DNA of 51,036 bases from a virus: positions 1 through 51,036 of the IMG/VR virus record IMGVR_UViG_3300029775_000002. One strand, 5' to 3'. The notes below the pieces were generated by a model. That model made no database searches. It was not told where the DNA came from and saw only the letters and a list, made by a program, of their open reading frames with translations. A program made the translations under genes and the position numbers. Below are positions 3,187 through 50,553 of this stretch, piece by piece (positions within the stretch are counted from its first letter, which is position 1; each line of letters begins with the position of its first letter).

Positions 3187-3762
3187 TTAGCCCCATTGTT
3201 CAGCCATTGCTCTTGCGAATCCTTCAAACGTTTTTGATCTGATCTCTGCTCTATCTTCACTAGGGGGAAGATTATACCATTCAGGAAGGCTTTTTCCGCT
3301 TTTCGTGATGTGTCTTTTACCTTTGCTTACAATATTCGTAGGCTGGAGAAGTGGGAGATTTTTAAGCCAAAGACAAGTTGTTTTTGTATGAGGATCTCCA
3401 AACATGTACGGCTGGACTATCTGGTCAGGTTTCCTTATATGAGTAGAAATTATAGAAACTGGGTTTTCTATTGCTATTTTTGGAATGTCGGCACTCATCA
3501 ACAATCTTACAAAATCTAAAGCTTCTTTTTGTTCTTTCTGTTTTTTATAAAACCATCTAGCACCTGAAACCGCGAGATGTGTACAGTCTGGATGGAACAC
3601 AGCTAAATCCCAACCATCGTTTATAATGTCCATCACGTCTCCCTGGTAATGTGGTCCAGGTCGTGTAGATGGTTTTAAATCACAACTTATTGCATCGTGC
3701 CCTTTCTCAAAAAATGCATCTCTAACAGTTCCAGAACACTCACAACCGACTAAGACTTTCAT
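3187..3762 (-). CDS. Phage-type DNA cytosine-C5 methyltransferase-like protein
   Basis: N-terminal MKVLVGCECSGTVRDAF SAM-binding segment, HPDCT catalytic Cys region, IENPV motif VI, QPYMFG and K.TCLWL motifs. Confidence 0.7.
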   Translation of the reverse strand: MKVLVGCECSGTVRDAFFEKGHDAISCDLKPSTRPGPHYQGDVMDIINDGWDLAVFHPDCTHLAVSGARWFYKKQKEQKEALDFVRLLMSADIPKIAIENPVSIISTHIRKPDQIVQPYMFGDPHTKTTCLWLKNLPLLQPTNIVSKGKRHITKSGKSLPEWYNLPPSEDRAEIRSKTFEGFARAMAEQWG

Positions 3763-4361: not shown

Positions 4362-5309
4362 TCATAAAAACGAATTCTCTCCGTAGAACGCTTTGTTATC
4401 ACGGTTTGCTTCTATGATTTTGCTCCACCATTCATCTTTTATTTTTTCGTTAACATCGCCCCCCCACCATTCATACGAACACGCTTCATCCATTATTATG
4501 CAAAACATTTCATCTGGAATACCTTCAGGTTTATTTACCCAAGAATATTGTTTTAGTTTTTCTTCGATACGTTTCTCATGGCAGTCTTCCCTCTCCATTA
4601 CTCTATCCCAATATTCGTTGAATTCTTCTGTAGTAAAATAATCATCATCGGTACTTTTAGTTTGTATTATAGGAGTCTCACCGTGTTCAAACCTTGCCGA
4701 CATCGCTGCTTTTAAAGCGATGTTCACATGGTTGTTTTGTTGACCTTCGAAAGCATCGACCCACATACCATCTGGCAAATTAAGCGAAACAAGTCGTTTC
4801 ATTTCAGTTCCGGCAGATTCCGCGCCCCACCCCGCGTCTACCCAATTTATATCAAAACTATGTGTAAACTTTAATCCAGAATTAAAAAACGCAACGCTTG
4901 ATATATGCACTCCTTTACTATGTTGGATACATGGGAACTCTATAATAATATCCTTATCACTTGGAATCCAAATATTAGATAAAATTAAAATTCCTCTTTC
5001 AGTTTGCCAACTATCTGCAATATCAGGCAATTGCCCTCCATAATCTACGGCATTTGCCAACATTGCCCAATAATCCACCGTTACATTTTCTAAATCACCC
5101 TTTACTTCTACCCATGTTTTTGTTTCTGGAAGGTAAAAATCTGGAAGGTAATACCACGTTTTACAGCTACCACGGTCTTTGATTTCATACCCTTCTTTTT
5201 CATACTCATACTTAATCCCTAGAGTATCAAAGAATACAGCCCATCTAGCTTCCAACCTGCTCCGAAATCTATACCCGTTATATACCGTTTCAATTGGCTT
5301 AATTTCCAT
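4362..5309 (-). CDS. PD-(D/E)XK nuclease-domain protein
   Basis: FRSRLEARWAVFFD..YEYE..YLPDFYLP...VEVKG, a common phage nuclease signature. Confidence 0.75.
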   Translation of the reverse strand: MEIKPIETVYNGYRFRSRLEARWAVFFDTLGIKYEYEKEGYEIKDRGSCKTWYYLPDFYLPETKTWVEVKGDLENVTVDYWAMLANAVDYGGQLPDIADSWQTERGILILSNIWIPSDKDIIIEFPCIQHSKGVHISSVAFFNSGLKFTHSFDINWVDAGWGAESAGTEMKRLVSLNLPDGMWVDAFEGQQNNHVNIALKAAMSARFEHGETPIIQTKSTDDDYFTTEEFNEYWDRVMEREDCHEKRIEEKLKQYSWVNKPEGIPDEMFCIIMDEACSYEWWGGDVNEKIKDEWWSKIIEANRDNKAFYGENSFL

Positions 5310-7115: not shown

Positions 7116-7316
7116 TTAACCATCTGGGTATTTTTGCTCCCTGATACACAGCTCCCCAGTATCTTTTTTTAGTTTGTATATCAGGTCCTTCCCTTCGAAA
7201 AATCCTCTTATTTTTGAATAATCTTCTGTGCCAAAATAGAGCATACCTAGCTGACGTTTTTGATTATATACACGCATACTTGTAGTTCCGGTAATTTCAG
7301 TTTCAGTTTCTTTCAT
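7116..7316 (-). CDS. Small AbrB/SpoVT-like regulator (tentative)
   Basis: 66 aa with a beta-rich pattern; divergent from the VirB-like operon. Confidence 0.4.
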   Translation of the reverse strand: MKETETEITGTTSMRVYNQKRQLGMLYFGTEDYSKIRGFFEGKDLIYKLKKDTGELCIREQKYPDG

Positions 7317-7358: not shown

Positions 7359-7406
7359 TAAATAACCTTCATTGTAGATAAATTTATCTACAATGAAGGT
7401 TATTTA
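7359..7406. repeat. Perfect 48-bp spacerless palindrome
   Basis: TAAATAACCTTCATTGTAGATAAA|TTTATCTACAATGAAGGTTATTTA, checked base by base. Confidence 0.97.
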
Positions 7407-7454
7407 GTTACTACACATAAAAAAAATTAAATGTAATTTATGAGAGGTTTAATT

Positions 7455-7853
7455 ATGAAAATTGCAGCAAAAATTCTACTGGTGCTACTCATGGCATCTA
7501 TTATTTTACCTGGATTTGCATCAGCAGCTGAGCCAGGTGCGATTCCGGAAATAGGCAATATCACTGGACCATCTACTACCACAGATGTTACTGGCGGGCT
7601 TGGGATATTTTCAAAACTTGGACAATTCTTAATGGATTATTCAATCCACATAGCGGTATTCGTAATGGTGCTAGCTATAGTGATATTGTCAGCAAGGGGT
7701 TCGTGGGCTCGCAGTAATCAGCGCTCAGAAGAAGCGTCTGAGAGTAGGTCAAATACGAAAGGGCTAATCATAGACGGTGTAATGACAATGGCAGCCTTGA
7801 TGTTCGTATTTTTTATTTTGGCACCGTTTGTCAAGAGTTTCATTCCGGCGTGA
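7455..7853 (+). CDS. VirB2/TrbC-like pilin or membrane subunit
   Basis: Signal peptide (…ILPGFASA|AE) plus two hydrophobic helices; first gene of the operon ending in VirB4. Confidence 0.55.
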   Translation: MKIAAKILLVLLMASIILPGFASAAEPGAIPEIGNITGPSTTTDVTGGLGIFSKLGQFLMDYSIHIAVFVMVLAIVILSARGSWARSNQRSEEASESRSNTKGLIIDGVMTMAALMFVFFILAPFVKSFIPA

Positions 7854-7865
7854 TGAGGTAAGAAC

Positions 7866-8069
7866 ATGAACGAATTTCAAAGAGAAGACATGATAAAAAG
7901 CGTTTCAGGCACCGTAGAAAGAAACTACTGTGCGATAAAACGTGAAGAATTGTTTGAAAAGTATAAAAACACCGATCAAGAAACGATGAAAAGTGTTATA
8001 GAGACTATGAAAAGACGAGGAATCTTGAGATACGACCAAAAAAACGACAAATACCGACTGGTGCTATAA
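7866..8069 (+). CDS. Small winged-helix protein
   Basis: VIETMKRRGILRYDQKNDKYRLV wing pattern. Confidence 0.5.
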   Translation: MNEFQREDMIKSVSGTVERNYCAIKREELFEKYKNTDQETMKSVIETMKRRGILRYDQKNDKYRLVL

Positions 8070-9500
8070 ATGAATAAATGGTTTGTCCTGCTTGGATTAT
8101 TTTTTATTGGTTCAATTGATGTTGTTAGCGCAGGACAGACAATTTATTTAGATCCTACTGATGAAGATGGGATCAATAAGGCACTAGAAGCCGCTAAAAA
8201 TGAGCCTGGAACTACTACAATAATACTAAATCCAGGCACATATGAAATTAAAGGCTCTCTAATTATCTATTCTAATACTGTTTTGAAAGGCGACCACGCT
8301 AAAATCTTAGTTTCCTCAAAATCAAAACAGTGGTTTATCCCTCCAAATGGGATAATCACAACTAAAGGACCCGTCGAAAACGTCACAATTGAAAATCTTA
8401 TAATAGACGGCAACTGTCACATGCTCCCGGCGAAATATGCAGATACACCGGGACATAAACACGACTGCGAGAAGCTCATTATCATAAAGGGGTACAGTAA
8501 CAAAAATTCAAAAAATATAGTTATCCGTAACTGTATATTTGCAAATGCCTTTTCTGATGCTGTTTATGTCGCACATTCAAAAGACGTAATCGTAGAAAAT
8601 AATCAAATTTCAAACTGCCAGCACTCTTCTATTTATTTTTCATGTGTTGTTAGTGGTCTTATTAAGAAAAACGATATCGCGGGGATAACAAGCGATAACG
8701 TTCGAGTTGAAAATTCTAAAAATGTAAAGGTACTGTATAATAATCTGTATGGATATTTCGGGAAAAAATCAAATGGAGCTTACCAGGGTGGGCACAATTT
8801 AGTACAAGTAGGGGACCAGGGCTTTTCTCATGGGTATGGTTCACCTAAGTCGATACATACTGAAAATATCGAAATCGCTTATAATACATTTTCAGGAAAA
8901 CATCTGAACACTATTTGGATAGACGCAGCCGGGAAAACTCCCACTACAAACCTCTGGATACATGATAATGAGTATGTCGATATGCCGGAAATTGAAAGGG
9001 ACGGATACAGCGCAGAAAACCCGCCTTCAATCGAAGAAACCGAGGAGATATTCACAACCTTGAAAGATCTCCTTAAAAGAGATTACACTTTCCAATATTT
9101 AGATACTGAGCAGGATTTAGAGGCATCAGCAGAAGCCGTTTATCACAATTACTCAACTGCTCCGTATAGCTTACTCACGGTTGAAGGAGAGGACGATATA
9201 GAGGTTATCAAGATTTCCTACGATGGGAACTCAGCCAGGCACTTTATAGAACGTGATATGTGGGTGGGTGATTTCCAGAGAGTGGGGGATGGTTGGTATA
9301 TTCCAGGCGAATTCGATGCGAATGAGTTAAAAATAACAGTTTACTCAAAAAACGGATATAAAACGTTATCAGAAGATGAAATAGAAATCAGGAACGCGAA
9401 AATCGGGTTAGCTGCAATTAGTGTTGATCTGTTCAATTATATTGCAACGCTGGCGATTTCTGGAATATCAATAACAAGAAGCATCAGGAGAATTTTATAA
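8070..9500 (+). CDS. Secreted, C-terminally membrane-anchored right-handed beta-helix protein (disaggregatase/pectate-lyase-like)
   Basis: Signal peptide, INKALEAA..TIILNPGTY, repeated N..I.NN beta-helix rungs, terminal hydrophobic helix followed by RRIL. Confidence 0.75.
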   Translation: MNKWFVLLGLFFIGSIDVVSAGQTIYLDPTDEDGINKALEAAKNEPGTTTIILNPGTYEIKGSLIIYSNTVLKGDHAKILVSSKSKQWFIPPNGIITTKGPVENVTIENLIIDGNCHMLPAKYADTPGHKHDCEKLIIIKGYSNKNSKNIVIRNCIFANAFSDAVYVAHSKDVIVENNQISNCQHSSIYFSCVVSGLIKKNDIAGITSDNVRVENSKNVKVLYNNLYGYFGKKSNGAYQGGHNLVQVGDQGFSHGYGSPKSIHTENIEIAYNTFSGKHLNTIWIDAAGKTPTTNLWIHDNEYVDMPEIERDGYSAENPPSIEETEEIFTTLKDLLKRDYTFQYLDTEQDLEASAEAVYHNYSTAPYSLLTVEGEDDIEVIKISYDGNSARHFIERDMWVGDFQRVGDGWYIPGEFDANELKITVYSKNGYKTLSEDEIEIRNAKIGLAAISVDLFNYIATLAISGISITRSIRRIL

Positions 9501-10615
9501 TGAGGCTGAAATGCGTATTAGTTCTATTGATACTGCTTATATCCATGACCGGGGCGGCTCTTGCTGCAGAGGAAAAACTGAAGGTCAGGAACTCGGACGG
9601 TGAAGAAGTAACAAGGGACACGACCCCTAAAAAATCAATGACTTTAGAGGATGCCGTTTCCCTTAATGCTGACATGGAGGACGCTGGAGTTCTGAGTAAT
9701 GACAATGAAGACGAAGAAACCGAGGAAGACGAGGCTCCTGAGAAATCATATAATAAAGAAATAGTTGAAGATGAAGATTATATAAGAAACGAAGTTGCGG
9801 CCGGAAACGAGCAATTTTTAACCGGGTTATTCACAGGGATTTACACAGAGTTCCAAAATTCTAGCGTAAAGGATGAAAACGGCAATGTGGCAGGTATGAT
9901 TTATACAGTCGTCACTTTTGTCCCGAACCCTTACGAGAATAATACAATAGTGGACTTATACGGCGGGTATGTCAATCTCTGTATATTCCTTACAGTTATG
10001 TTCGTTTTAGGGGAATCCGTTAATCGTAGTGCTGCCAGGATGAAAATAACTTCAGGTTCTAAGTATAGTCTCCCTCCTAGAAGGCTTATAGGCGGGCTTG
10101 CTATGTGCATGTTTGCGGTAATGGGAAACGTGTTTTACATGCTCATATTAGAGATAATCGAAGCTCTAAACGGCTTCATTACAATGCCCGTAGTTCCTGC
10201 AATGACTCCAGACCCAGAGCATTTCTTTACGTTTTTGATGATGGGACTCTGCGACCTGCTTGTAATGATATTTTTTATAGTTCGGTACTTCCTGATTTAC
10301 ACTTTCGCCGTGATTTGCGGGGTTGTTTTTGTCCTGTTAGTTTTCAAAACATCAAGGGACTTCTCACAAAATGTTATCGAGAAAATGATAAGGATTCTAG
10401 CCCTTCAGCCAGCTTCTTTGTTTGTCACATCAGTATGCATTTTAGCAATAGATTCGTTACCAATGCCCCTTCAGCGTTTCGGTTATGTAGGGGTTACGGT
10501 TGTAATATTCTTAACTTGTTACTATTTCATGTTCGGAAATTTCACGCTGCTTAAAACGGGTATCAGTACCGCAGTCTCAAAAGGATTAGTTAAAACCGGA
10601 GTTCGATACAAATGA
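9500..10615 (+). CDS. VirB6/TrbL-like polytopic membrane protein
   Basis: Signal peptide, acidic stretch, then about 6 TM helices; position in the VirB4 operon. Confidence 0.55.
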   Translation: MRLKCVLVLLILLISMTGAALAAEEKLKVRNSDGEEVTRDTTPKKSMTLEDAVSLNADMEDAGVLSNDNEDEETEEDEAPEKSYNKEIVEDEDYIRNEVAAGNEQFLTGLFTGIYTEFQNSSVKDENGNVAGMIYTVVTFVPNPYENNTIVDLYGGYVNLCIFLTVMFVLGESVNRSAARMKITSGSKYSLPPRRLIGGLAMCMFAVMGNVFYMLILEIIEALNGFITMPVVPAMTPDPEHFFTFLMMGLCDLLVMIFFIVRYFLIYTFAVICGVVFVLLVFKTSRDFSQNVIEKMIRILALQPASLFVTSVCILAIDSLPMPLQRFGYVGVTVVIFLTCYYFMFGNFTLLKTGISTAVSKGLVKTGVRYK

Positions 10616-11607
10616 CCAACGAAACACCATATTCACAAGCAAGACCACCAAAAACAATCACAAGAATAAAATCAGACAGGTTCTTAGACCTTACCAACCT
10701 CCATACATGGATACTGTTCGCAGCAACAGCCGCATGTATGTATCTCTTCAGGGAGATGTCAAACAGTATAATAGTTGTACTAACAGCAACCAGAAATATG
10801 ACACCAGAAGAACTGATAACAGATGCTTACATGAACATTCTTATGTATGCTTCAATGCTCGTTTTAGTCGTGTTTTTCTGGTTGAAATATTTTAGAAACG
10901 ATGATCTCGTGGAATACCAGAAAGACCGGACAGTGTTTTTCATCCAGGGTCTACGCGGGAAGCATGTAATCAATACAATGGCTGAATCAATGGAGAACCT
11001 GTTAAAACTCGTTTCTATCGTGGGAATCCATGACAGCACAGACGGGATAAAGGAAACTAAAGCCCCAAAAGGTGTTATAATTGAATTTGGTCCTCATATC
11101 TCATTTATCCAGAGATTGAAAATCTTCTTCAGGCTCGAAAAGAAGAAGCTGAATGAATATGGGGTACTGATTGAAACATTCCCGCCCAGGCTCTCAGATG
11201 AATTCCGAGAGTTTCACGAGATGGTACTCCAAAAGGTTGTAAACGGGCTTCCGGTTAACACGTTATTTGAAAATATATCCTGCTCTGTGATGGAGCCCAA
11301 AAAGCAGGTTTTAGAGTATCTGCTCTCACTAATGAACACCTCAAAGGGGGATGCAAGCGACAAACATCTTGCAGACATGTATCTCAAGATTTCTACTGAT
11401 AACGAACTTGTAATAAAATGGCGGTATTATTCCTTCATTTCATTGGGAGAGCGTAAAAATATAGCTGCTGCAAGGGTCCAGTATGGGGCAATAATCCCAG
11501 GGCTCATATCAAGTATGAAAGGTGCTTCTCTGTGCCCTGTAGTGCTTAGAGATCAACAGTCGGTAATTGAAGCTTATAAAATTATGTTAGGGGAGGTAGA
11601 CGCATGA
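10612..11607 (+). CDS. VirB3/PrgI-like protein (two TM helices plus soluble domain)
   Basis: Two N-terminal hydrophobic helices; overlaps the VirB4 start (ATGA). Confidence 0.45.
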   Translation: MTNETPYSQARPPKTITRIKSDRFLDLTNLHTWILFAATAACMYLFREMSNSIIVVLTATRNMTPEELITDAYMNILMYASMLVLVVFFWLKYFRNDDLVEYQKDRTVFFIQGLRGKHVINTMAESMENLLKLVSIVGIHDSTDGIKETKAPKGVIIEFGPHISFIQRLKIFFRLEKKKLNEYGVLIETFPPRLSDEFREFHEMVLQKVVNGLPVNTLFENISCSVMEPKKQVLEYLLSLMNTSKGDASDKHLADMYLKISTDNELVIKWRYYSFISLGERKNIAAARVQYGAIIPGLISSMKGASLCPVVLRDQQSVIEAYKIMLGEVDA

Positions 11608-14165
11608 TAGTTCAAAAAGTCAAGAATCTTAAAACGAATGTAAAGAAGAGATGGAACGATGCTGGACACTACGCAGATAATCAAGCATGGTCTAGGTCAT
11701 ATGCAAGAAAGATTCTTCCAAGCAGGATTGAGGTATTTGATACTAATCTCGTATTTAATCAGAGAATGGTAGTCCGAACTATTGTATGTGGTTTACCAAC
11801 TGATACAGGTTCAGAAGGATACCCACGAGACTTCAGCAGCAAAACTATTGAGCAGATACAGAACCTAGCGTTTGATGGGGTTAGGGTCTTAATTTCTACG
11901 GGTCTCATTCAGTTGCCAGGGGTTCACACAAAAGAGACGTTAGAGCAGGCACATTTTGATGCAGGAGTTAGGCGAAGCCAAAACAATCACGAAGGGACTG
12001 AGAAAGATGAGCTCGAACTTACTATGAAAAGTCAGGATATCATACAAAACTATTCTGAAATATATTACAAGTCTCAAAAGGCTTTTCATGCTTCTTTTGT
12101 TGTCGTCCTGCGTGGGCCTGCTGATCTAGTGTTCGAGGCTGAAAGTAAATTAATAAACATTATCAGAGGGGAAAATATAGAGGTTACTATTCCTAGCAGG
12201 CTTCAGCTTGAGATGCTACAGACGGCTTTACCTGGACCAGACACTCACCCTAGATCATGGGTTGAAGTTCGTTCAGACGGGGCGGCGGTCTTATCATCTG
12301 CAACAAACCTGAACAGCCGGACAGATGATACAGGCATGTATTTCGGGAAGGACATGTTAACCAATAATGAAATTATGTTCGATCTGGATAGACTTGCAGC
12401 CAAAACACTGGCTATGTGTGGAGCTACAGGGTCCGGTAAAACATATGCTTATCTGCTGCTTCTCATGCGGTTGAAGACTCTCAGGGATGCCCGGATAATA
12501 TACACGACTCCAAAGGCCGATGAAGGCACTAATTATAGGTCTGTAGCGGCTGCATTTGGGGACAATGGCTGTATAGCTGACATTGGTATTAATGGATCTG
12601 AATATTTCAATCCTCTTGATATTCTGATTGACCTTGAGAGCATGGGACTGAACAAGGAAGAACTGAAGGGAGCCAGGAAACATATATTTGAAAATTTATA
12701 CGACCTGAAGAAAGGGACCTTAATAAACGCTCATAGAATCTGGTTAGGCTCAGAATTCACGTCAAATATGGCTAGTTATCTCGATGAGTCCCTTGATTAT
12801 GTTTACGAGCAAGCAGGAATCTATAGGGATGAACCGGACAGCTTTTCAAATCCAATGCCTGTATATCCTACACTCCGTTTTAAATGGGAGCTGGATAAGG
12901 AAAACAAGAACTTAGGGACTAAACAGAAGACCGCAGAGGCACTTTATAATAAGACTTATCAGTTCTCTTCAACTGGATTATTTAATAGATACTGCAACCA
13001 GACAAAAGGGCTGGACCTTAACAAAGACTTCATTATAATAGATATGGCAAACGTCCCAGACGAGATTAAAACGTTTATGTCAGTCATTGTAAACGGGGCT
13101 ATAGCTTCCAGGTTCAGCACTCACAACGAAAGAGAGACCTATCTAGCGATTGATGAAGGCGGGGTCTACCTTCGGGATAAGCTATTAAGAGAACAGATGC
13201 TACAGAGGCTCACGCAGGGTAGGAGTCATAAGTTTTACCAGTGGATTGCAACACATCAGCCGTCAGACTTCTCTAAAAATGGAGTCGGTGAGGACTTCAG
13301 GACGAATACCTACATAAATATCCTGATGGGAAACAACATTAAAAAATCCCTCAATGATGTAAAAGACTATTTTGAGTTAACAGAAAACGAATGCTCTATA
13401 TTGTCAAACTGTACTGTAGGACAGGGTCTATTACTATTCGGAGATTCCGAAGATGAAAGAGTTCCCATCTTCTTTGAGTCTACAAAATGGGAGCATGAAA
13501 CGATCAAAGGAATAGGATATGAAGACAAAAAACCAGTTGCTGATAGTGGTTTAACGTTTAAGAGGGAATTCAAGCATTTAATAGCAGATCATAAAATCAT
13601 CTTTTCAGACTGGTTTGATGGCGACTCTTCCGTATTATTACAACAGGGCTACGAAAAACACCAAGTTTCCAGAGTTAACAAACCAGGAACGGTTGGTGCT
13701 TTTTTACCAAAGGGTTCTGTCAGGAATGGACGGATAATATTACCGCATTTGGGAGACATGAAACTCATTCATTTCTCTGATGTGATCCAGTTAGACCCGT
13801 TAATGCAGTCTGAAAACTTCGAGGAAATAACGATAAACCACAATCAGGATGTGGATATTAAGGGCCGGAAAAATGGAAAATGGCTTGGCTTGGAAGTCGA
13901 AATAAAAGGCTCTCACACTACAGAGGAATTGATAGCAAAGAAGGCAGCTGCACTCGGAAAAGGAATGGAAGTTCGTTTCATTTGCAGTTCCGCGGATTAT
14001 CCCTTCATTTCAGGGACCGTAGGTGAGGATTATACGCTTAAAAGAGGGTCGGACGTTGCTGATTTCTTAAAGAATTTCGCGGCTGAAGAAGAAAACGGCG
14101 AAGAAGAAACAGATATTCAGGTTCCTGCTGAATCTGGACTGATTACTGATGAATTGGAGGCTTAA
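11604..14165 (+). CDS. virB4: VirB4-like secretion/conjugation ATPase with a C-terminal PD-(D/E)XK-like domain
   Basis: Walker A GATGSGKT, FNPLD, IIIDM, Walker B LAIDEGG, ATHQPSDF and GQGLL motifs; 853 aa. Confidence 0.8.
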   Translation: MIVQKVKNLKTNVKKRWNDAGHYADNQAWSRSYARKILPSRIEVFDTNLVFNQRMVVRTIVCGLPTDTGSEGYPRDFSSKTIEQIQNLAFDGVRVLISTGLIQLPGVHTKETLEQAHFDAGVRRSQNNHEGTEKDELELTMKSQDIIQNYSEIYYKSQKAFHASFVVVLRGPADLVFEAESKLINIIRGENIEVTIPSRLQLEMLQTALPGPDTHPRSWVEVRSDGAAVLSSATNLNSRTDDTGMYFGKDMLTNNEIMFDLDRLAAKTLAMCGATGSGKTYAYLLLLMRLKTLRDARIIYTTPKADEGTNYRSVAAAFGDNGCIADIGINGSEYFNPLDILIDLESMGLNKEELKGARKHIFENLYDLKKGTLINAHRIWLGSEFTSNMASYLDESLDYVYEQAGIYRDEPDSFSNPMPVYPTLRFKWELDKENKNLGTKQKTAEALYNKTYQFSSTGLFNRYCNQTKGLDLNKDFIIIDMANVPDEIKTFMSVIVNGAIASRFSTHNERETYLAIDEGGVYLRDKLLREQMLQRLTQGRSHKFYQWIATHQPSDFSKNGVGEDFRTNTYINILMGNNIKKSLNDVKDYFELTENECSILSNCTVGQGLLLFGDSEDERVPIFFESTKWEHETIKGIGYEDKKPVADSGLTFKREFKHLIADHKIIFSDWFDGDSSVLLQQGYEKHQVSRVNKPGTVGAFLPKGSVRNGRIILPHLGDMKLIHFSDVIQLDPLMQSENFEEITINHNQDVDIKGRKNGKWLGLEVEIKGSHTTEELIAKKAAALGKGMEVRFICSSADYPFISGTVGEDYTLKRGSDVADFLKNFAAEEENGEEETDIQVPAESGLITDELEA

Positions 14166-15174: not shown

Positions 15175-15399
15175 TTGGTTGACGATGTGTACACGTACAC
15201 ACATTTAATTAAGGATGTTCTCTTGTTTCGTTGTTTTCAACGGTCTCTCTCTCAAAACAAAAAGGATCTTGCAAGATTAACTAAGAGAGTTGCTGAACTA
15301 GAAACCACTAATGAGACCTTAGTTCGCTTCCTTCGCGGGAAGTTCAGGAAGGATTCACACAAGCTAACAAAGCTCTTAAATATGAAGAAATATCAATAA
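15175..15399 (+). CDS. Hypothetical coiled-coil protein
   Basis: 74-aa ORF with heptads LARLTKRVAELETTNETL. Confidence 0.35.
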   Translation: MVDDVYTYTHLIKDVLLFRCFQRSLSQNKKDLARLTKRVAELETTNETLVRFLRGKFRKDSHKLTKLLNMKKYQ

Positions 15400-15744
15400 A
15401 CCACAACGCGAAGGAGGATTTAAGAGGCAAGAAAAACGGTAAATGGCTGGCAATTGAATATGAGAAAAAGGGCAGTCATACGAAAGACGAACTAATCAAA
15501 AAGAAGCTTGCTGCACTCGAAAAGGGATACGAGGTTAGGTTCATTTGCAGTAGCTCGGATTATCCCACTATTTCGGATGCCGTGGGTGAGGAATACACCC
15601 TTTCGAGAGGGTCAGCCGTTACCGATTTCCTAAAGAATTTCAGGAATCAAAACATAGAAAAAGCTGAAATGCTGGATCCTGGAACTTCTCAGGAACTTAC
15701 CGAAGGAATGGAGGCTTAATATGCCTCCTTTTCAAACGGCACTA
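15381..15744 (+). pseudogene. 5'-truncated diverged copy of the virB4 3' end and its downstream sequence
   Basis: Open frame YEEISINHNAKEDLRGKKNGKWLAIEYEKKGSHTKDEL…MEA* matches VirB4 FEEITINHNQDVDIKGRKNGKWLGLEVEIKGSHTTEEL…LEA*; both are followed by ATAT(A/G)CCTCCTTTTCAAA.GGCACTA; no start codon. Confidence 0.85.
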
Positions 15745-18716: not shown

Positions 18717-19166
18717 TTAACCTTGTTCCGGCATTTTTGTATCTTGGCTCTCGACATAGGCTATAAGGACATCAAGAGAAACTTGTCCTGTTGTAGCCAA
18801 GAAGTATGAAGGAGTCCAAAAGCTGTCGCCCCATAAGTATTCTTTTGTCTTAGGGAATTCGTTTCTTAGGACTCTCGCGGAAGCTCCTTTGATACTATTG
18901 ATTACTTTTGTTAGTCTCGTATTAGGGGTAGCCTTGAAAAGAATATGATGGTGATCCTCTCCAGGCTCTTGAGCCACTATTTCTATAGCCATCTCAGCAT
19001 TTTTTTCTCTTTGCCACTTCTCAGCCATTTCATAGATGATTTGTTTCAATCTCTCTCGTATGACTTCGTTGTATAGAGCTTTTCTCCTGTACTTCACGAC
19101 AAGAATTAAGTGATAGTGAAGGGTGTACACTGAGTGTGCGCCCTTATCGAGTTTGTAGGTTGACAT
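18717..19166 (-). CDS. tnpA: IS200-family Y1 (HUH) transposase TnpA
   Basis: HSVYTLHYHLILVVKYRRK, EDHHH HUH region, IKGASAR, WTPSYF, catalytic YVESQ; ATG at 19166. Confidence 0.95.
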   Translation of the reverse strand: MSTYKLDKGAHSVYTLHYHLILVVKYRRKALYNEVIRERLKQIIYEMAEKWQREKNAEMAIEIVAQEPGEDHHHILFKATPNTRLTKVINSIKGASARVLRNEFPKTKEYLWGDSFWTPSYFLATTGQVSLDVLIAYVESQDTKMPEQG

Positions 19167-19168
19167 TT

Positions 19169-19642
19169 TCAAACCTCTTCCACGTAAGTAATTTCGTCTT
19201 TCCATGTTGAAATGTCTGGCGCGTCACCGAAAACTATAATCTTAGGAGTTCCGGATGATCTAGTCTGGCTGTTCAGCCACTCAACGACTACAAACCAATC
19301 GGTTTTTTCGGATAATATACGCTCTGTATAGTCCCATACTCTCCACGATGTTCCACGGTTTTCCAATCTTTTTGTAGTAAGCTTAACGGGGGACATAATT
19401 GTTTTTCGGATTCCATACGTGCCTCCAGTCTGTCCACGTTGGACACATACATCAACATCGATATATCCACATTCTGGAAGTGGGTGACGTTCAACGATTT
19501 TCCCATTCAAGTGAGGTATTGGGTATTGCTTTCTGACTACTGGAACGCGAGTTCTACATAGCTGGCAATAGTAGTCACCACTGTCACGCGGGACATTGTA
19601 AATAGGACACTTGCAGACACTGCATGACGTTTCTGTGATCAT
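19169..19642 (-). CDS. Zn-ribbon-containing hypothetical protein coupled to tnpA
   Basis: CSVCKC and CQLC motifs; stop codon 2 nt before the tnpA ATG. Confidence 0.6.
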   Translation of the reverse strand: MITETSCSVCKCPIYNVPRDSGDYYCQLCRTRVPVVRKQYPIPHLNGKIVERHPLPECGYIDVDVCVQRGQTGGTYGIRKTIMSPVKLTTKRLENRGTSWRVWDYTERILSEKTDWFVVVEWLNSQTRSSGTPKIIVFGDAPDISTWKDEITYVEEV

Positions 19643-46311: not shown

Positions 46312-46566
46312 ATGTCAAAATCACCAACATTAGCTTTAATCTTGTCCATAGTCCCAGGCTTAGGCCACGTCTACGCTATGGGTACAGCAGGAATCCCAAG
46401 AGCACTTGTGTTCTTGGGTAGTATAGGTATCTCAATCTGGTTCTGCCTTATCCTCATAGGGTTCATCATGGTTCCTATCCTGTGGATCTGGTGTGCTGTT
46501 GATGCAATGGGTATGGCAGCTAGAGCAAACCAGGGACTAAATAAAAATACTACTTTTGGAGTGTGA
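46312..46566 (+). CDS. TM2-domain-like small membrane protein
   Basis: KSPTLALILSIVPGLGHVY…W.W..VDA pattern. Confidence 0.7.
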   Translation: MSKSPTLALILSIVPGLGHVYAMGTAGIPRALVFLGSIGISIWFCLILIGFIMVPILWIWCAVDAMGMAARANQGLNKNTTFGV

Positions 46567-46631
46567 ATTATTTTTTTTCTAAAATTCAGTTAACACCGTT
46601 AACACTATTACATTTAAAATTAATATATCAA

Positions 46632-47114
46632 ATGGGAATTCCTATGACTACAATCAAGAAAAAAACGAAGAAAAAAAGGGTAAAACCTCCACGAAATCCC
46701 GAAGTTTTCAGATGGACTCCGCAACGCAAAAAAGCTGCATTATTATTATCAATCGGCACTAAAAATTATGAAGAAGTAGCTGCAGAGGTTCGGGTCCACA
46801 TCTCAACCCTCTGGGAATGGCGGAAAAATCCAATCTTCCTCAAGGAAGTCGACGGGCTCACCCTCGAAAACGAATTGGCAACCAGGGCAGGCCTTCTCCG
46901 GGAATGCATCAAAGGCCTTGACCTGAAACGAGACAAAATTGAAAATGACAAGAACACTCATCTCCATTACGTCCAGGCAATAGCTGACCTCCAGGGTCTG
47001 ACAAAACAAAAGGTCGAACTTGATGCTAATATGAACCACACCGGCGGAGGCGCAGTAACGATATACATTCCAGACAACGGGCGGGATAAAAAACAAGATG
47101 ACGAACAAGAATAG
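46632..47114 (+). CDS. terS: Terminase small subunit (HTH)
   Basis: KAALLLSIG…EEVAAEVRVHISTLWEWRKNP.F HTH, C-terminal …IYIPDNGR; overlaps the terL start. Confidence 0.7.
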   Translation: MGIPMTTIKKKTKKKRVKPPRNPEVFRWTPQRKKAALLLSIGTKNYEEVAAEVRVHISTLWEWRKNPIFLKEVDGLTLENELATRAGLLRECIKGLDLKRDKIENDKNTHLHYVQAIADLQGLTKQKVELDANMNHTGGGAVTIYIPDNGRDKKQDDEQE

Positions 47115-48522
47115 TCCTGATAAGGAGATCCGTCCTCAACCAGGACCCCAAGAATTTTTTCTTTCTTCTCCGGCTGACATTATCATATATGGCGGGAGTG
47201 CGGGCTCTGGAAAATCTTTTGTACTTCTTATCGAGCCTCTCAGACATATACACGTAAAAGGATTCACAGCTAATATTTTCAGAAGGACATATCCTCAGAT
47301 CATGAACGAAGGTGGCCTGTGGTCCACATCTCAGGAAATCTATCCTTACGTTGGAGGAAAGCCCAGGGAAGCAGATGTGCGCTGGAAATTCCCTTCCGGA
47401 AACTCTATCAAATTCGCTCACCTCGAGCATGAGAAATCAAAACTGGAATACCAAGGCTCTCAGATCTGCTATATTGGTTTTGACGAATTAACACATTTCA
47501 GCGAAGGCCAATTTTTCTATCTTCTCTCCAGGAACCGTTCAACCTGTGGGGTCAAACCTTACGTTAGAGCAACCTGCAACCCGGACCCGGATAGTTGGGT
47601 AGCTCAGTTTATTGCATGGTGGATAAATCAGGACACAGGCTATCCAATCCCTGAACGCTCCGGTGTAATCCGTTATTTTGTTCGCCATGGTGACGCTATC
47701 TATTGGGGTGATAGTACCACGGAACTATGGGAACAGGTACAAGACAGAATGACCATAGAAGACTTTCATCCCACTTCATTCACTTTCATTTCTGCAAGGC
47801 TTGAAGACAACCCAGCACTCACAAGCAAAGACCCAGGATATAGAGGTAGGCTTCTTTCTCTCCCTCTAGTGGACCGCGAAAGACTTCTAGGCGGCAACTG
47901 GAAAATAAGAGCAAGTGCCGGGAATATGTTTAAGTCGGAATGGTTCAAGTTTCTCGAAGCTAGGGAAATACCCTGTAATCCTCAAGACTTGAAGAAAGTC
48001 CGATGGTGGGATACAGCAGCCACAGAACCAAATAAAGATAATCCTAATCCCGATTGGACGATAGGCGTACTCATGGGTGAGCACAAAGGCGAGTATTTCA
48101 TTCTCGATGTTCAACGTTTTAGGAAGAGTCCGGCAGCCACAGAAGAGGCTATGAGAACAACGGCAGAAATGGACGGTAAAACTGTAGAAATCGGAATGGA
48201 GCAAGAGCCAGGGAGCGCAGGGAAGCGAGAGGCTGAACGTTTTAAGCGGTCCATATTCGCGGGATATTCTTTCCGGGCAGAACTTTCAACAGGGGATAAA
48301 GTTACAAGGGCTAAACCCTTCTCTTCTGCTTGTGAAAATGGATTAGTCCATTTAGTCAGAGGTTCTTGGAATTATGATTTTATTTCTACTCTTGTTAATT
48401 TCCCTGATGCTCAGTATCACGATGATGATGTAGACGCAGCGAGTGCAGCACATAGTTATCTATCTAGGAAGATAAACAGTAATTTTAGTCTTTCTGGATT
48501 GGTAAGGACAAAAAGGCGATAA
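47098..48522 (+). CDS. terL: Terminase large subunit
   Basis: YGGSAGSGKS Walker A, IGFDELTHF Walker B, ATCNP, WWDTAAT RNase-H domain, HDDDVDA. Confidence 0.95.
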   Translation: MTNKNSPDKEIRPQPGPQEFFLSSPADIIIYGGSAGSGKSFVLLIEPLRHIHVKGFTANIFRRTYPQIMNEGGLWSTSQEIYPYVGGKPREADVRWKFPSGNSIKFAHLEHEKSKLEYQGSQICYIGFDELTHFSEGQFFYLLSRNRSTCGVKPYVRATCNPDPDSWVAQFIAWWINQDTGYPIPERSGVIRYFVRHGDAIYWGDSTTELWEQVQDRMTIEDFHPTSFTFISARLEDNPALTSKDPGYRGRLLSLPLVDRERLLGGNWKIRASAGNMFKSEWFKFLEAREIPCNPQDLKKVRWWDTAATEPNKDNPNPDWTIGVLMGEHKGEYFILDVQRFRKSPAATEEAMRTTAEMDGKTVEIGMEQEPGSAGKREAERFKRSIFAGYSFRAELSTGDKVTRAKPFSSACENGLVHLVRGSWNYDFISTLVNFPDAQYHDDDVDAASAAHSYLSRKINSNFSLSGLVRTKRR

Positions 48523-48523
48523 C

Positions 48524-48883
48524 ATGGACGAATACAAAGATCTAAAATCAATAATCGACGAAGCAACTGGAGTACACAAAGACGCAACTAGAGACAGACC
48601 GTACGACGGACAACCACATACTTCCGAAGGGATACGAGGGAAAACCTTAGTCGAAGGTCTTACCATGCGAGATGTAGCTGACTGTATGGCCATTGGATTA
48701 CTCGAAGCATCCGGTATACCAGAATTACAGGACGCAGCAGAAAGAGGAATATGGACATACAACGACCTGTATAAGCTCGAAGATTTTGATCCTGTTGCAG
48801 CCATTCAATGTATGGGGTGCAACCTCGAAAAGATGATGGGGATTTATCCAAACGCTCCGAAATTGCACTTTGAAGATAAATAA
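48524..48883 (+). CDS. Hypothetical protein
   Basis: 119-aa ORF after terL. Confidence 0.6.
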   Translation: MDEYKDLKSIIDEATGVHKDATRDRPYDGQPHTSEGIRGKTLVEGLTMRDVADCMAIGLLEASGIPELQDAAERGIWTYNDLYKLEDFDPVAAIQCMGCNLEKMMGIYPNAPKLHFEDK

Positions 48884-48989
48884 TTCATTTTTTTCTTATT
48901 TTTTCCAATAAATACCACACATTTTTATACAAAAACCCCCATATTTCTATTGTTAACGGCGTGAACAACTAAAAGAAGGCGGTCATCTT

Positions 48990-49310
48990 ATGGACTTCAT
49001 AGCTCTCCAAGAATCTATCTATTTTATCTCAGGCATTCTCGCGGCTGTAGCAGGCGCATATGGCACGATGAAAACACAGGGTAAGGTAATCTATCCTATC
49101 CAAAAAATTGAATCAGGAAAAGCCCGGATAAAAGCTCTCATCGAACAACAGGATGCAGCCGGGCAGGTCATTGACATACTTGATAACATTTCTCCCGCAG
49201 AATTGAACGCAATTCTTGAGAAAGCGAAGGTTCTGTCTGATGATGGATTCAGCGCAGCCGAAGCGCAGGAATTAGGCGTTATGATTGTGACAGCAGTTAA
49301 GGAAAAGTGA
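48990..49310 (+). CDS. Hypothetical protein with N-terminal TM helix (holin-like, tentative)
   Basis: IYFISGILAAVAGAYG hydrophobic helix; precedes the portal gene. Confidence 0.45.
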   Translation: MDFIALQESIYFISGILAAVAGAYGTMKTQGKVIYPIQKIESGKARIKALIEQQDAAGQVIDILDNISPAELNAILEKAKVLSDDGFSAAEAQELGVMIVTAVKEK

Positions 49311-49314
49311 ATGC

Positions 49315-50553
49315 ATGCCTGAGTTGAACGCCGCGGCTCCTGTTAAGAAAAGCTCGTTTCGACTAGCAGCAGCAGCCGGCGTATTAGGAAAAAAAGAAAA
49401 CCCGACGAATTTCGGGGATTACACGAATTTTGATACTTCTAACAGATTTTTCAGATATCAGCAGCTCGTTAAGTCAACTCCCTATGCTTCTATCGGAATG
49501 AAAAAACTCAAGACTTCGCTAACGAAAGGGCTCGATTTCGATGGCAAGAGCAGGCGACAAGTTGACGAATTCCGCAAGTGGATGAAAAAAACTAATCTAG
49601 TCGGACAAGTTCAAAATATCGCAGGCTCACTTTTCCGAGATGGGACTTTTTGCGGGGTATTAAACGGCAATAATCCTGACACTCTCAAGCTTCAGCCTCT
49701 TTTAATGGCACATACTACGCTTCTTCCCGAAGGCATAGAGCATGGAAAAGCCTCTAAGGTACTTTTACAGCCTCCTATTAAGGAGTTCGTTGTTAATGAG
49801 GGAAGCACAGGGGACGTTCAGGAAGTCACGTATAAGGCTCAGGATGTAGTTTATGGGGCTTTGGATGAATGGGACTCAATCCAATTAGATATTAGAGAAC
49901 GTGAAACATGCGGGCTTTATGGTGAGAGCCTAATTGATCCTATTGAACTTTCTATAAGATATCTCCATGTCATAAATCAAGGATACGTGGAGTTCGTTAA
50001 AAAATACGGTATGGGGAGATACAGTTACTCTTTCCCTATTTTAGAAAAATTACTCGAATCCAATATTATAGATTTCAATGTTTTTCAAACAGAAATTAAT
50101 GACTGGATGGAAGATAACAAGAACCTTTCACAAAATGAAGATCTCGTCGGCATCGTAAAAGCGGAAGCCATCGATGCTAAAGGCTCTTTAGATATAATGG
50201 AATTCAAAAAAGCCTTAGAGACTGACATCCAGCTTGGTTTCTTACAAAGTGACTTATCAATGGGCGACTCGAAAGGGTCAACTTATGCAGCCGGTTACGT
50301 TTCTGAAAATAGCAGGATGGTCGCTCTCGAAAATCTACAGCTCAATCTTTCTAATATTGTTAACGATTTCATTAACAGACGGCTCGTTTTGCAAAATAAA
50401 TCTGAAGATTCAGTGGAAATAATCTTCGATGAATTAAGCCTCCCTCAGATGTCGGCAGCCGAGATAACTGAATGGTATGCGACGGGGATTATTACGAAGG
50501 AGCAGGCTTTAGAGTGGGGCGGGTTTCCAGTTTTAGAATCAGGCGGTGAGTAA
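49315..50553 (+). CDS. Portal protein
   Basis: 412 aa after terL; helical pattern with LYGES.IDPI clip-region motif. Confidence 0.8.
   Translation: MPELNAAAPVKKSSFRLAAAAGVLGKKENPTNFGDYTNFDTSNRFFRYQQLVKSTPYASIGMKKLKTSLTKGLDFDGKSRRQVDEFRKWMKKTNLVGQVQNIAGSLFRDGTFCGVLNGNNPDTLKLQPLLMAHTTLLPEGIEHGKASKVLLQPPIKEFVVNEGSTGDVQEVTYKAQDVVYGALDEWDSIQLDIRERETCGLYGESLIDPIELSIRYLHVINQGYVEFVKKYGMGRYSYSFPILEKLLESNIIDFNVFQTEINDWMEDNKNLSQNEDLVGIVKAEAIDAKGSLDIMEFKKALETDIQLGFLQSDLSMGDSKGSTYAAGYVSENSRMVALENLQLNLSNIVNDFINRRLVLQNKSEDSVEIIFDELSLPQMSAAEITEWYATGIITKEQALEWGGFPVLESGGE

Follow-up and report, generated by a model that had tools for sequence, protein, structure and literature searches.

The DNA analysed here, referred to as the window, is the whole 51,036-nucleotide stretch of IMG/VR virus record IMGVR_UViG_3300029775_000002. 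The last gene of a six-gene module in the window encodes a VirB4-like ATPase of 853 residues that is longer at its C-terminus than canonical VirB4 proteins. The last ~210 residues quite possibly form a two-part module, in which a small subdomain that may bind nucleic acid is followed by a core modelled as a PD-(D/E)xK-type nuclease fold. The domain defines a PD-(D/E)xK-type family for which, as far as sequence comparison goes, Pfam, NCBIfam, PHROG and PADLOC have no matching model. The DNA-cutting step that is missing from archaeal conjugation-like transfer might be supplied by such a VirB4 protein with a nuclease fold, which is carried by Methanosarcina viruses and a small plasmid-like replicon, and this idea is testable. 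A first-pass annotation had proposed that this VirB4 ends in a restriction-endonuclease-like domain at 13770-14165, after the ATPase. The modelled core and the strong constraint on it bear this out; the interval starts at the codon of H723, and the string quoted in the annotation, EEITINHNQDVDIKGRKNGKWLGLEVEIKGSH, lies at residues 741-772. The parts of the protein are listed below, with residue counts taken over 77 distinct C-terminal sequences.

11604-14165, plus strand: VirB4-like ATPase gene with C-terminal extension (853 residues), last gene of the translationally coupled module.
12420-12443, plus strand: Walker A motif GATGSGKT, residues 273-280; all of 39 full-length relatives share G278 and K279.
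13152-13157, plus strand: Walker B acidic pair D517-E518, invariant in the same 39 relatives.
13551-13763, plus strand: N-terminal subdomain of the extension, residues ~650-720, modelled as two helices and two beta-hairpins with a weak winged-helix resemblance.
13764-14093, plus strand: predicted PD-(D/E)xK-type nuclease-fold core, residues ~721-830, with the order alpha-beta-beta-beta-alpha-beta-alpha-beta-alpha.
13770-13772, plus strand: H723, which opens helix alpha1 (76/77).
13839-13856, plus strand: H746 at the end of beta1 (72/77) to D751 at the start of beta2 (77/77), the latter being the equivalent of the Asp in "PD".
13893-13901, plus strand: E764-x-E766 at the end of beta3 (74/77 and 75/77), the equivalent of "(D/E)xK" with Glu at the Lys position.
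13938-13940, plus strand: K779 in helix alpha2 (74/77), a candidate for a relocated catalytic Lys.
14043-14048, plus strand: R814-G815, a near-invariant pair ahead of the last helix (75/77 and 77/77).
14094-14162, plus strand: acidic C-terminal tail modelled with low confidence, with 11 Asp/Glu and no Lys/Arg in the last 30 residues, ending ...DELEA.

The reading frame at 11604-14165 is unbroken and its start codon overlaps the stop codon of the preceding gene (ATGA, 11604-11607). The P-loop ATPase occupies residues ~136-625. Pfam AAA_10 (29.1 against 27.5 bits) and DUF87 both match above their gathering scores. The best NCBIfam model is conju_CD1110, which represents the CD1110-type VirB4, but the match is far under the cut-off; for the curated VirB4 models TIGR00929 and NF045971 the scores are 33.6 against 643.1 and 87.6 against 325 bits, respectively. 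A profile built from the 39 full-length relatives matches the solved VirB4 ATPase domain 4AG5 with an E value of 3.2e-39, and the alignment places profile positions 243-626 on residues 7-390, the whole crystallised chain. The next matches are HerA (5.7e-8), the coupling protein IcmO/DotL (1.2e-5) and FtsK (1.6e-3). Since the 4AG5 match is far above those to HerA and IcmO/DotL, the label VirB4 is justified in the sense of VirB4-like, and by these comparisons the ATPase is a distant VirB4-like clade outside the curated bacterial subfamilies. No close relatives were found in isolate phage or plasmid collections. The protein shares with canonical VirB4/TrbE/TraC proteins (4AG5 from Thermoanaerobacter and the CD1110 family of Gram-positive elements) an FtsK/HerA-superfamily ATPase with Walker A and B motifs and the last position in an operon of small membrane proteins. 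It differs from them in its C-terminus and in the lack of a VirD4 partner in the data searched. The AAA_10 match ends at residue 625 and that of conju_CD1110 at 615, and the alignments of 4AG5, bacterial plasmid VirB4s and the single phage-collection match all stop at residues 614-631. The ~210 residues with the nuclease-fold module follow, and canonical VirB4s are without them.

The annotation had named structure prediction of the C-terminal ~200 residues as a check. The fold of the last 214 residues was predicted with AlphaFold2 from a 39-sequence alignment, which gave a PD-(D/E)xK-type core and a predicted local distance difference test score (pLDDT) of 90.8, with a predicted template-modelling score of 0.83 and a pLDDT of 96-98 in the core. 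In the numbering of the 214-residue model, the helices and hairpins of the subdomain span residues 11-81 and the nuclease-type core spans 82-185, with helices at 82-97 and 134-146 and strands at 101-105, 113-117, 120-126 and 150-155. The turns between the first three core strands are 7 and 2 residues long in the model. These strands therefore form a PD-(D/E)xK beta-meander, which is incompatible with the all-parallel sheet of a CheY-type fold, and the latter, found among the mid-range structure matches, was ruled out. Foldseek returned nothing at E<=1e-3, and its list consists mostly of YaeQ, NucS, Bax1, Cdn1, Can2, Hjc, XisH and type II enzymes. The viral predicted structures that match the domain are "restriction endonuclease" and VRR-NUC proteins, with a probability of 0.98-1.0. 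Among protein-language-model clusters with a name, the nearest are DUF91, PDDEXK_11, AHJR-like, PDDEXK_3 and CoiA_nuc (0.83-0.87), which serve as leads only. The last 214 residues have no match in Pfam, NCBIfam or PADLOC and none among PDB sequences by phmmer or by profile, and in PHROGs, which was run on the full-length protein only, the ATPase part alone was matched. Single other members of the family have weak profile matches to Cap4_nuclease (2e-3) and CoiA_nuc (0.1). Membership in the Hjc family (PF01870) was rejected because the hhalign probability against an alignment of 15 Hjc sequences is 0.9%.

Only 22 columns are invariant in the 39 full-length sequences, which are 24-90% identical to the query, and 7 of them lie in the extension: H723, D751, E764, E766, K779, R814 and G815. 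D751 and E764 are 13 residues apart, equal to the spacing of PD...E-x-K in Hjc sequences. The first-pass annotation had read a D...(E/D)xE pattern in this region. The acidic residues of this pattern, D751, E764 and E766, are indeed conserved, but the Lys of the "EIK" in the window, K768, is present in only 18 of the 77 sequences and it is K779 that is retained instead. The canonical Lys two residues past the beta3 acidic residue is absent, E766 being there. The conserved motif, judged from the alignment, is a variant D...E-x-E plus the helix Lys K779. We tentatively propose that H723, H746, D751, E764-x-E766 and K779 make up the active site of a metal-dependent endonuclease. Compared with Hjc and the small PD-(D/E)xK nucleases (the Can2/Card1 nuclease domain, Bax1, VRR-NUC and NucS), the domain has a Glu in place of the motif Lys and additional conserved residues in H723, H746 and the helix residue K779. 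It is also fused to a membrane-associated motor, whereas those enzymes are free dimers.

The ratio of nonsynonymous to synonymous substitution rates (dN/dS) was calculated against the two closest loci. It is lowest in the ATPase (0.03), followed by the core (0.10) and the first subdomain (0.15), and reaches ~0.3-1 in the acidic tail. On these values the core is evidently under purifying selection. Of the 77 sequences, 72 have an acidic residue, Asp or Glu, at position 722. The window allele has Ile there and carries the changes D722I and S726D (13767-13781). Asp at position 726, one helical turn on, is found among the 77 only in the window sequence and the near-identical P0027. The two changes may represent a carboxylate relocated on the same face of helix alpha1, and a relocation from 722 to 726 argues for selection on an active site. 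The window allele also differs from its close relatives by Y765V. In the Methanosarcina subclade the acidic tail has a near-neutral dN/dS, yet the terminal ...E-A-L / ...L-E-A motif is kept, and members of the Methanoperedens or anaerobic methanotrophic (ANME) type are without the acidic tail. The tail may serve as a peptide for docking, or it may inhibit the protein itself by mimicking DNA.

Does the fold have to be catalytic? It could serve as a platform for docking DNA or protein, built into the motor and taking the place of the VirD4 receptor, or it could have a part in hexamer assembly or regulation. Inactive PD-(D/E)xK domains used for binding are common, and such a role would agree with the missing (D/E)xK Lys, the loss of D722 in the window allele and the lack of a profile match to active nuclease families. 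However, E-x-E variants such as BamHI are active, the canonical metal-site carboxylates together with two His, the Lys and the Arg are near-invariant down to ~25% identity, and an acidic residue reappears one helical turn off in the allele without D722. We consider a non-catalytic domain unlikely.

The fusion is both widespread and constant. A search of the last 214 residues against 1.84 billion representative proteins gave 81 clusters. The domain match is at the C-terminal end of every full-length hit (790-1260 residues), and most of the short hits are fragments. In the reverse test relatives were gathered through the ATPase region alone, and the C-terminal domain was present in 86 of 88 further proteins, the 2 exceptions being sequences cut inside the ATPase. 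Three other proteins collected in this way end just ahead of the nuclease core. A search for close VirB4 relatives without the domain, intended for neighbourhood comparison, gave only truncated entries. Independent samples have yielded more than 100 full-length proteins with this architecture. The source names of the relatives include Methanosarcina, Candidatus Methanoperedens and Candidatus Methanomarinus, and ANME-2 elements are also represented. No description of a VirB4-nuclease fusion was found in the literature searched, which did not cover the classic FtsK-HerA survey. Related loci were recovered with a profile from a narrower alignment, a scan of genome contigs with the single protein having given no match. 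The genome matches are Methanosarcina metagenome-assembled genomes (MAGs) or isolates and two short, probably mis-binned contigs. The latter are L003 (Proteiniphilum MAG) and L006 (Leptospirales MAG), which carry the module at 88% and 68% protein identity, and they are almost certainly the result of binning contamination and not of bacterial carriage.

Some variation in architecture was observed. P0040 (278 residues; L040 2192-3028) is a complete open reading frame (ORF) with the nuclease core at residues 170-276 and an unrelated N-terminus, which shows that the domain also exists outside VirB4; the 4.5-kb L040 contig has no ATPase gene beside it. When named stand-alone relatives were sought by profile, only unnamed fragments of this family came back. 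P0007 (1219 residues) and P0068 (1259 residues; L015 10001-13780) are ~370-400 residues longer than the other members and have Hom_end/LAGLIDADG matches, and on this basis the extra length is assigned to inteins within the VirB4 ATPase.

The module consists of six co-oriented, tightly packed genes (7440-14165), of which the first five are as follows.

7440-11607, plus strand: five upstream module genes, for a pilin-like protein of 137 residues, a protein of 67 residues, a secreted beta-helix protein of 476 residues, a polytopic membrane protein of 371 residues and a protein of 331 residues.

One of the partners is a two-helix protein with a signal peptide, and the 331-residue protein has hydrophobic stretches at its N-terminus. 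The membrane and pilin-like partners were matched by no family model, so none could be assigned to VirB2, VirB3 or VirB6 in that way. Synteny of the module extends to all related loci that were recovered, among them L003-L006, L008 and L010-L012, and by called-gene order and size L015 and L016. Genes of similar size occur in the same order even at ~28% identity in the domain. The viral record behind L010 (G066; L044 and L045) is 21,095 bp long, and a direct repeat of 99 bp at its termini marks it as a circular assembly. Its genes include a family A DNA polymerase and a D5-like primase-helicase, alongside the VirB4-nuclease module in full. Homologues of the capsid, portal, terminase and tail genes of the window are missing from G066, as are recognisable capsid genes. 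Judging from its gene content, this record, filed as a virus, is a candidate for a Methanosarcina conjugative plasmid. That tailed viruses and a replicon lacking capsid genes both carry the cassette is in keeping with a function in autonomous DNA transfer.

Pfam scans covered the ORFs of the window and 57 flanking ORFs from six loci, and five whole related viral records, which include the 21-kb circular replicon and of which one is rated 100% complete, were searched in six frames with the Relaxase, Replic_Relax, T4SS-DNA_transf and TrwB_AAD_bind models. No member of a relaxase or VirD4/TraG family was found in the window, the flanks of the six loci or the five whole records, which upholds the earlier statement that no HUH relaxase accompanies the operon. 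The sole hits in the six-frame searches are sub-threshold and lie on the VirB4 P-loop itself. The relaxase family PF03432 has no match in the five whole records, while PF08751, PF03389 and PF01076 were not searched in six frames. Replic_Relax (PF13814), which we take to be the family model of the MOBC relaxases, has no match in the domain scans or in the five records. The sole HUH enzyme is an IS200-type TnpA (18717-19205, minus strand), which had been described as operon-embedded and as an alternative nicking enzyme. It lies 4.5 kb downstream of the module, is encoded on the other strand and is missing from most of the related loci. It is therefore not embedded in the operon, and as a separate insertion it was rejected as the operon nickase. 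A perfect, spacerless 48-bp palindrome at 7359-7406 had been suggested as the substrate of the nuclease. A related palindrome of 52 bp occurs only in L012 (5686-5737), and none is present upstream of the module in L008, L010, L011 or L004. The palindrome is not conserved with the module and was rejected as a substrate. L012 is the only other locus with the divergent 66-residue gene (7116-7316; 88% identity). The palindrome co-occurs with this gene and not with the module, and therefore behaves like an operator of the 66-residue protein, a small regulator, which is probably its role. No conserved candidate site resembling an origin of transfer was found.

How then might DNA be processed for transfer? 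It could well be, though it is far from assured, that an active endonuclease is tethered at the cytoplasmic end of the VirB4 hexamer, where it cuts or nicks the replicon and passes the DNA to the motor. The nuclease would be located at the cytoplasmic face of the hexamer, under a channel made of the pilin-like, polytopic and bitopic membrane proteins; this placement is suggested because the nuclease-fold part follows directly on the C-terminus of the ATPase domain. The nuclease would cut or nick the DNA of the element, either a viral or a plasmid replicon, beside the motor, and the cut would create an end or a strand that is fed into a conjugation-like or Ced-like conduit. A single polypeptide would then carry out DNA processing and perhaps substrate docking, for which the bacterial counterparts are a relaxase and VirD4. 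We infer the catalytic activity, the DNA substrate, the placement at the pore, the direction of transport and the relaxase-like role, and the domain is a plausible substitute for a relaxase. A broader proposal, which we regard as doubtful, is that the clade as a whole shows DNA handling free of relaxase and coupling protein, in which a PD-(D/E)xK endonuclease built into VirB4 would cut the replicon at the channel entrance and deliver it straight to the motor, and in which tailed viruses of Methanosarcinales and capsid-less plasmids share the cassette.

Known systems offer partial parallels to a VirB4-tethered endonuclease. The MOBC relaxases, TraX of pAD1 and MobC of CloDF13, belong to the PD-(D/E)xK superfamily and nick DNA in conjugation with no covalent DNA intermediate observed (PMC12857230), so the fold can play the role of a relaxase. 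A MobC-like relaxase and a VirD4-like translocase are found in the DNA-translocation operon of the tailed phages 0305phi8-36 and SPO1 (PMC3357382). Unlike the VirB4 fusion, the MOBC enzymes are separate helix-turn-helix-nuclease proteins that work with a VirD4 coupling protein. The HerA-NurA, XPB-Bax1 and HerA-DUF4297/Cap4-type complexes have a ring-forming or translocating ATPase with a nuclease at the DNA entry, as proposed here. After VirB4, HerA is the family structurally closest to the ATPase, and Bax1 and, weakly, Cap4_nuclease are among the neighbours of the domain. However, HerA-NurA-type pairs are separate soluble polypeptides of repair or defence, whereas here both parts are in one chain encoded in an operon of pilin and membrane proteins. 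The Ced/Ted import systems and the archaeal conjugative plasmids (pNOB8 type, pT33-3) resemble type IV secretion systems and have a VirB4-like ATPase, and no nuclease domain is reported on VirB4 or CedB in the sources cited (PMC12857230, PMC6563490). The archaeal conjugative plasmids also carry a VirD4-like protein, and none was detected with the module here. Two points temper the case for an active nuclease that replaces a relaxase. Neither Ced/Ted systems nor, in general, archaeal conjugative plasmids have a recognised relaxase (PMC12857230, PMC6563490), and because of this the absence of a relaxase does not by itself assign a role to the domain. In addition, the D722I change could also mean that the window copy is impaired.

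The module could instead be a machine for DNA import, in which DNA arriving on the cytoplasmic side is processed by the tethered nuclease, perhaps through degradation of one strand or trimming of its ends. VirB2-, VirB6- and VirB4-like parts make up the archaeal Ced/Ted systems, and to our knowledge import systems are without VirD4 and relaxase, as is the module in the data searched. The sequence gives no sign of the direction of transport. The NCBIfam CedB model does match the P-loop weakly, but the match is limited to residues 242-306 and scores 31 bits against a cut-off of 700. The module is carried by selfish replicons (tailed proviruses and the 21-kb circular element), and self-export is therefore a simpler selective rationale than import, which we consider rather unlikely. 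It is less likely still that the module is a device for defence or superinfection exclusion, in which a membrane-associated ATPase-nuclease would destroy the DNA of a competitor virus or plasmid on entry, much as HerA-nuclease defence complexes do. Defence systems include pairs of an FtsK/HerA-type ATPase and a PD-(D/E)xK nuclease, and exclusion genes are frequent on proviruses. PADLOC gave hits at the level of the ATPase (mad8 at 1.1e-12 and HerA models), although the ATPase is far nearer to VirB4 than to HerA, and the Cap4_nuclease match is weak and seen in one member of the family. Neither the C-terminal domain nor any membrane partner is matched by a PADLOC model, and the constant partners, which include the pilin-like, polytopic and wall-degrading beta-helix proteins, are of the kind usual in a conduit across the envelope. 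Chance resemblance within a tail that is not a domain, or an artefact of read-through or of a mis-joined ORF, would explain the absence of Pfam and NCBIfam matches but is very improbable given the pLDDT of the model, the same placement in all 81 representative clusters, the purifying selection on the core and the recurrence of the architecture in independent samples.

The occurrence of the cassette in tailed proviruses and in the capsid-less 21-kb replicon raises the possibility of contact-dependent transfer of viral DNA inside Methanosarcina aggregates, and under the broader proposal above the viruses would gain a second, virion-independent route between cells. The motor-attached nuclease fold provides a concrete protein with named residues to mutate, and genetic tools are available for Methanosarcina.

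The position of the module among the virion genes is also recurrent. In the window, the capsid, tape-measure and disaggregatase-like fibre genes are downstream of the module. The small and large terminase and portal genes are at the right end (46563-50553) and MuF is at the left end (139-1083), and the record is therefore probably a permuted circular or concatemeric assembly. A block of ~20 kb with a lower G+C content (0.36-0.41 compared with 0.44-0.49) contains the module and separates MuF from the scaffold and capsid genes. The module likewise lies between MuF and the scaffold and capsid genes in the diverged L008 (266-1156), and in L043 it is directly upstream of a run of unannotated genes with sizes that resemble a head-tail block. 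A further feature was found downstream of the VirB4-like gene.

15372-15713, plus strand: second, truncated copy of the nuclease core that lacks both helix alpha1 and a start codon; it shares 84% identity with the C-terminus of P0107.

This copy is only 58% identical to the resident gene. These identities suggest that it is what remains of the 3' end of another VirB4 allele, a scar of cassette replacement by recombination. The window contains a second nuclease candidate at 4362-5309 (minus strand), a protein of 315 residues with an N-terminal region like T7 endonuclease I or a Holliday-junction resolvase (PHROG 9019, 3.9e-10; Pfam Phage_endo_I, 2.4e-3). The adjoining region at 3187-3762 (minus strand) has a DNA methyltransferase match (PHROG 757, 5.9e-68), and a 194-residue ORF between the resolvase-like gene and the methyltransferase has the catalytic domain only of a tyrosine recombinase.

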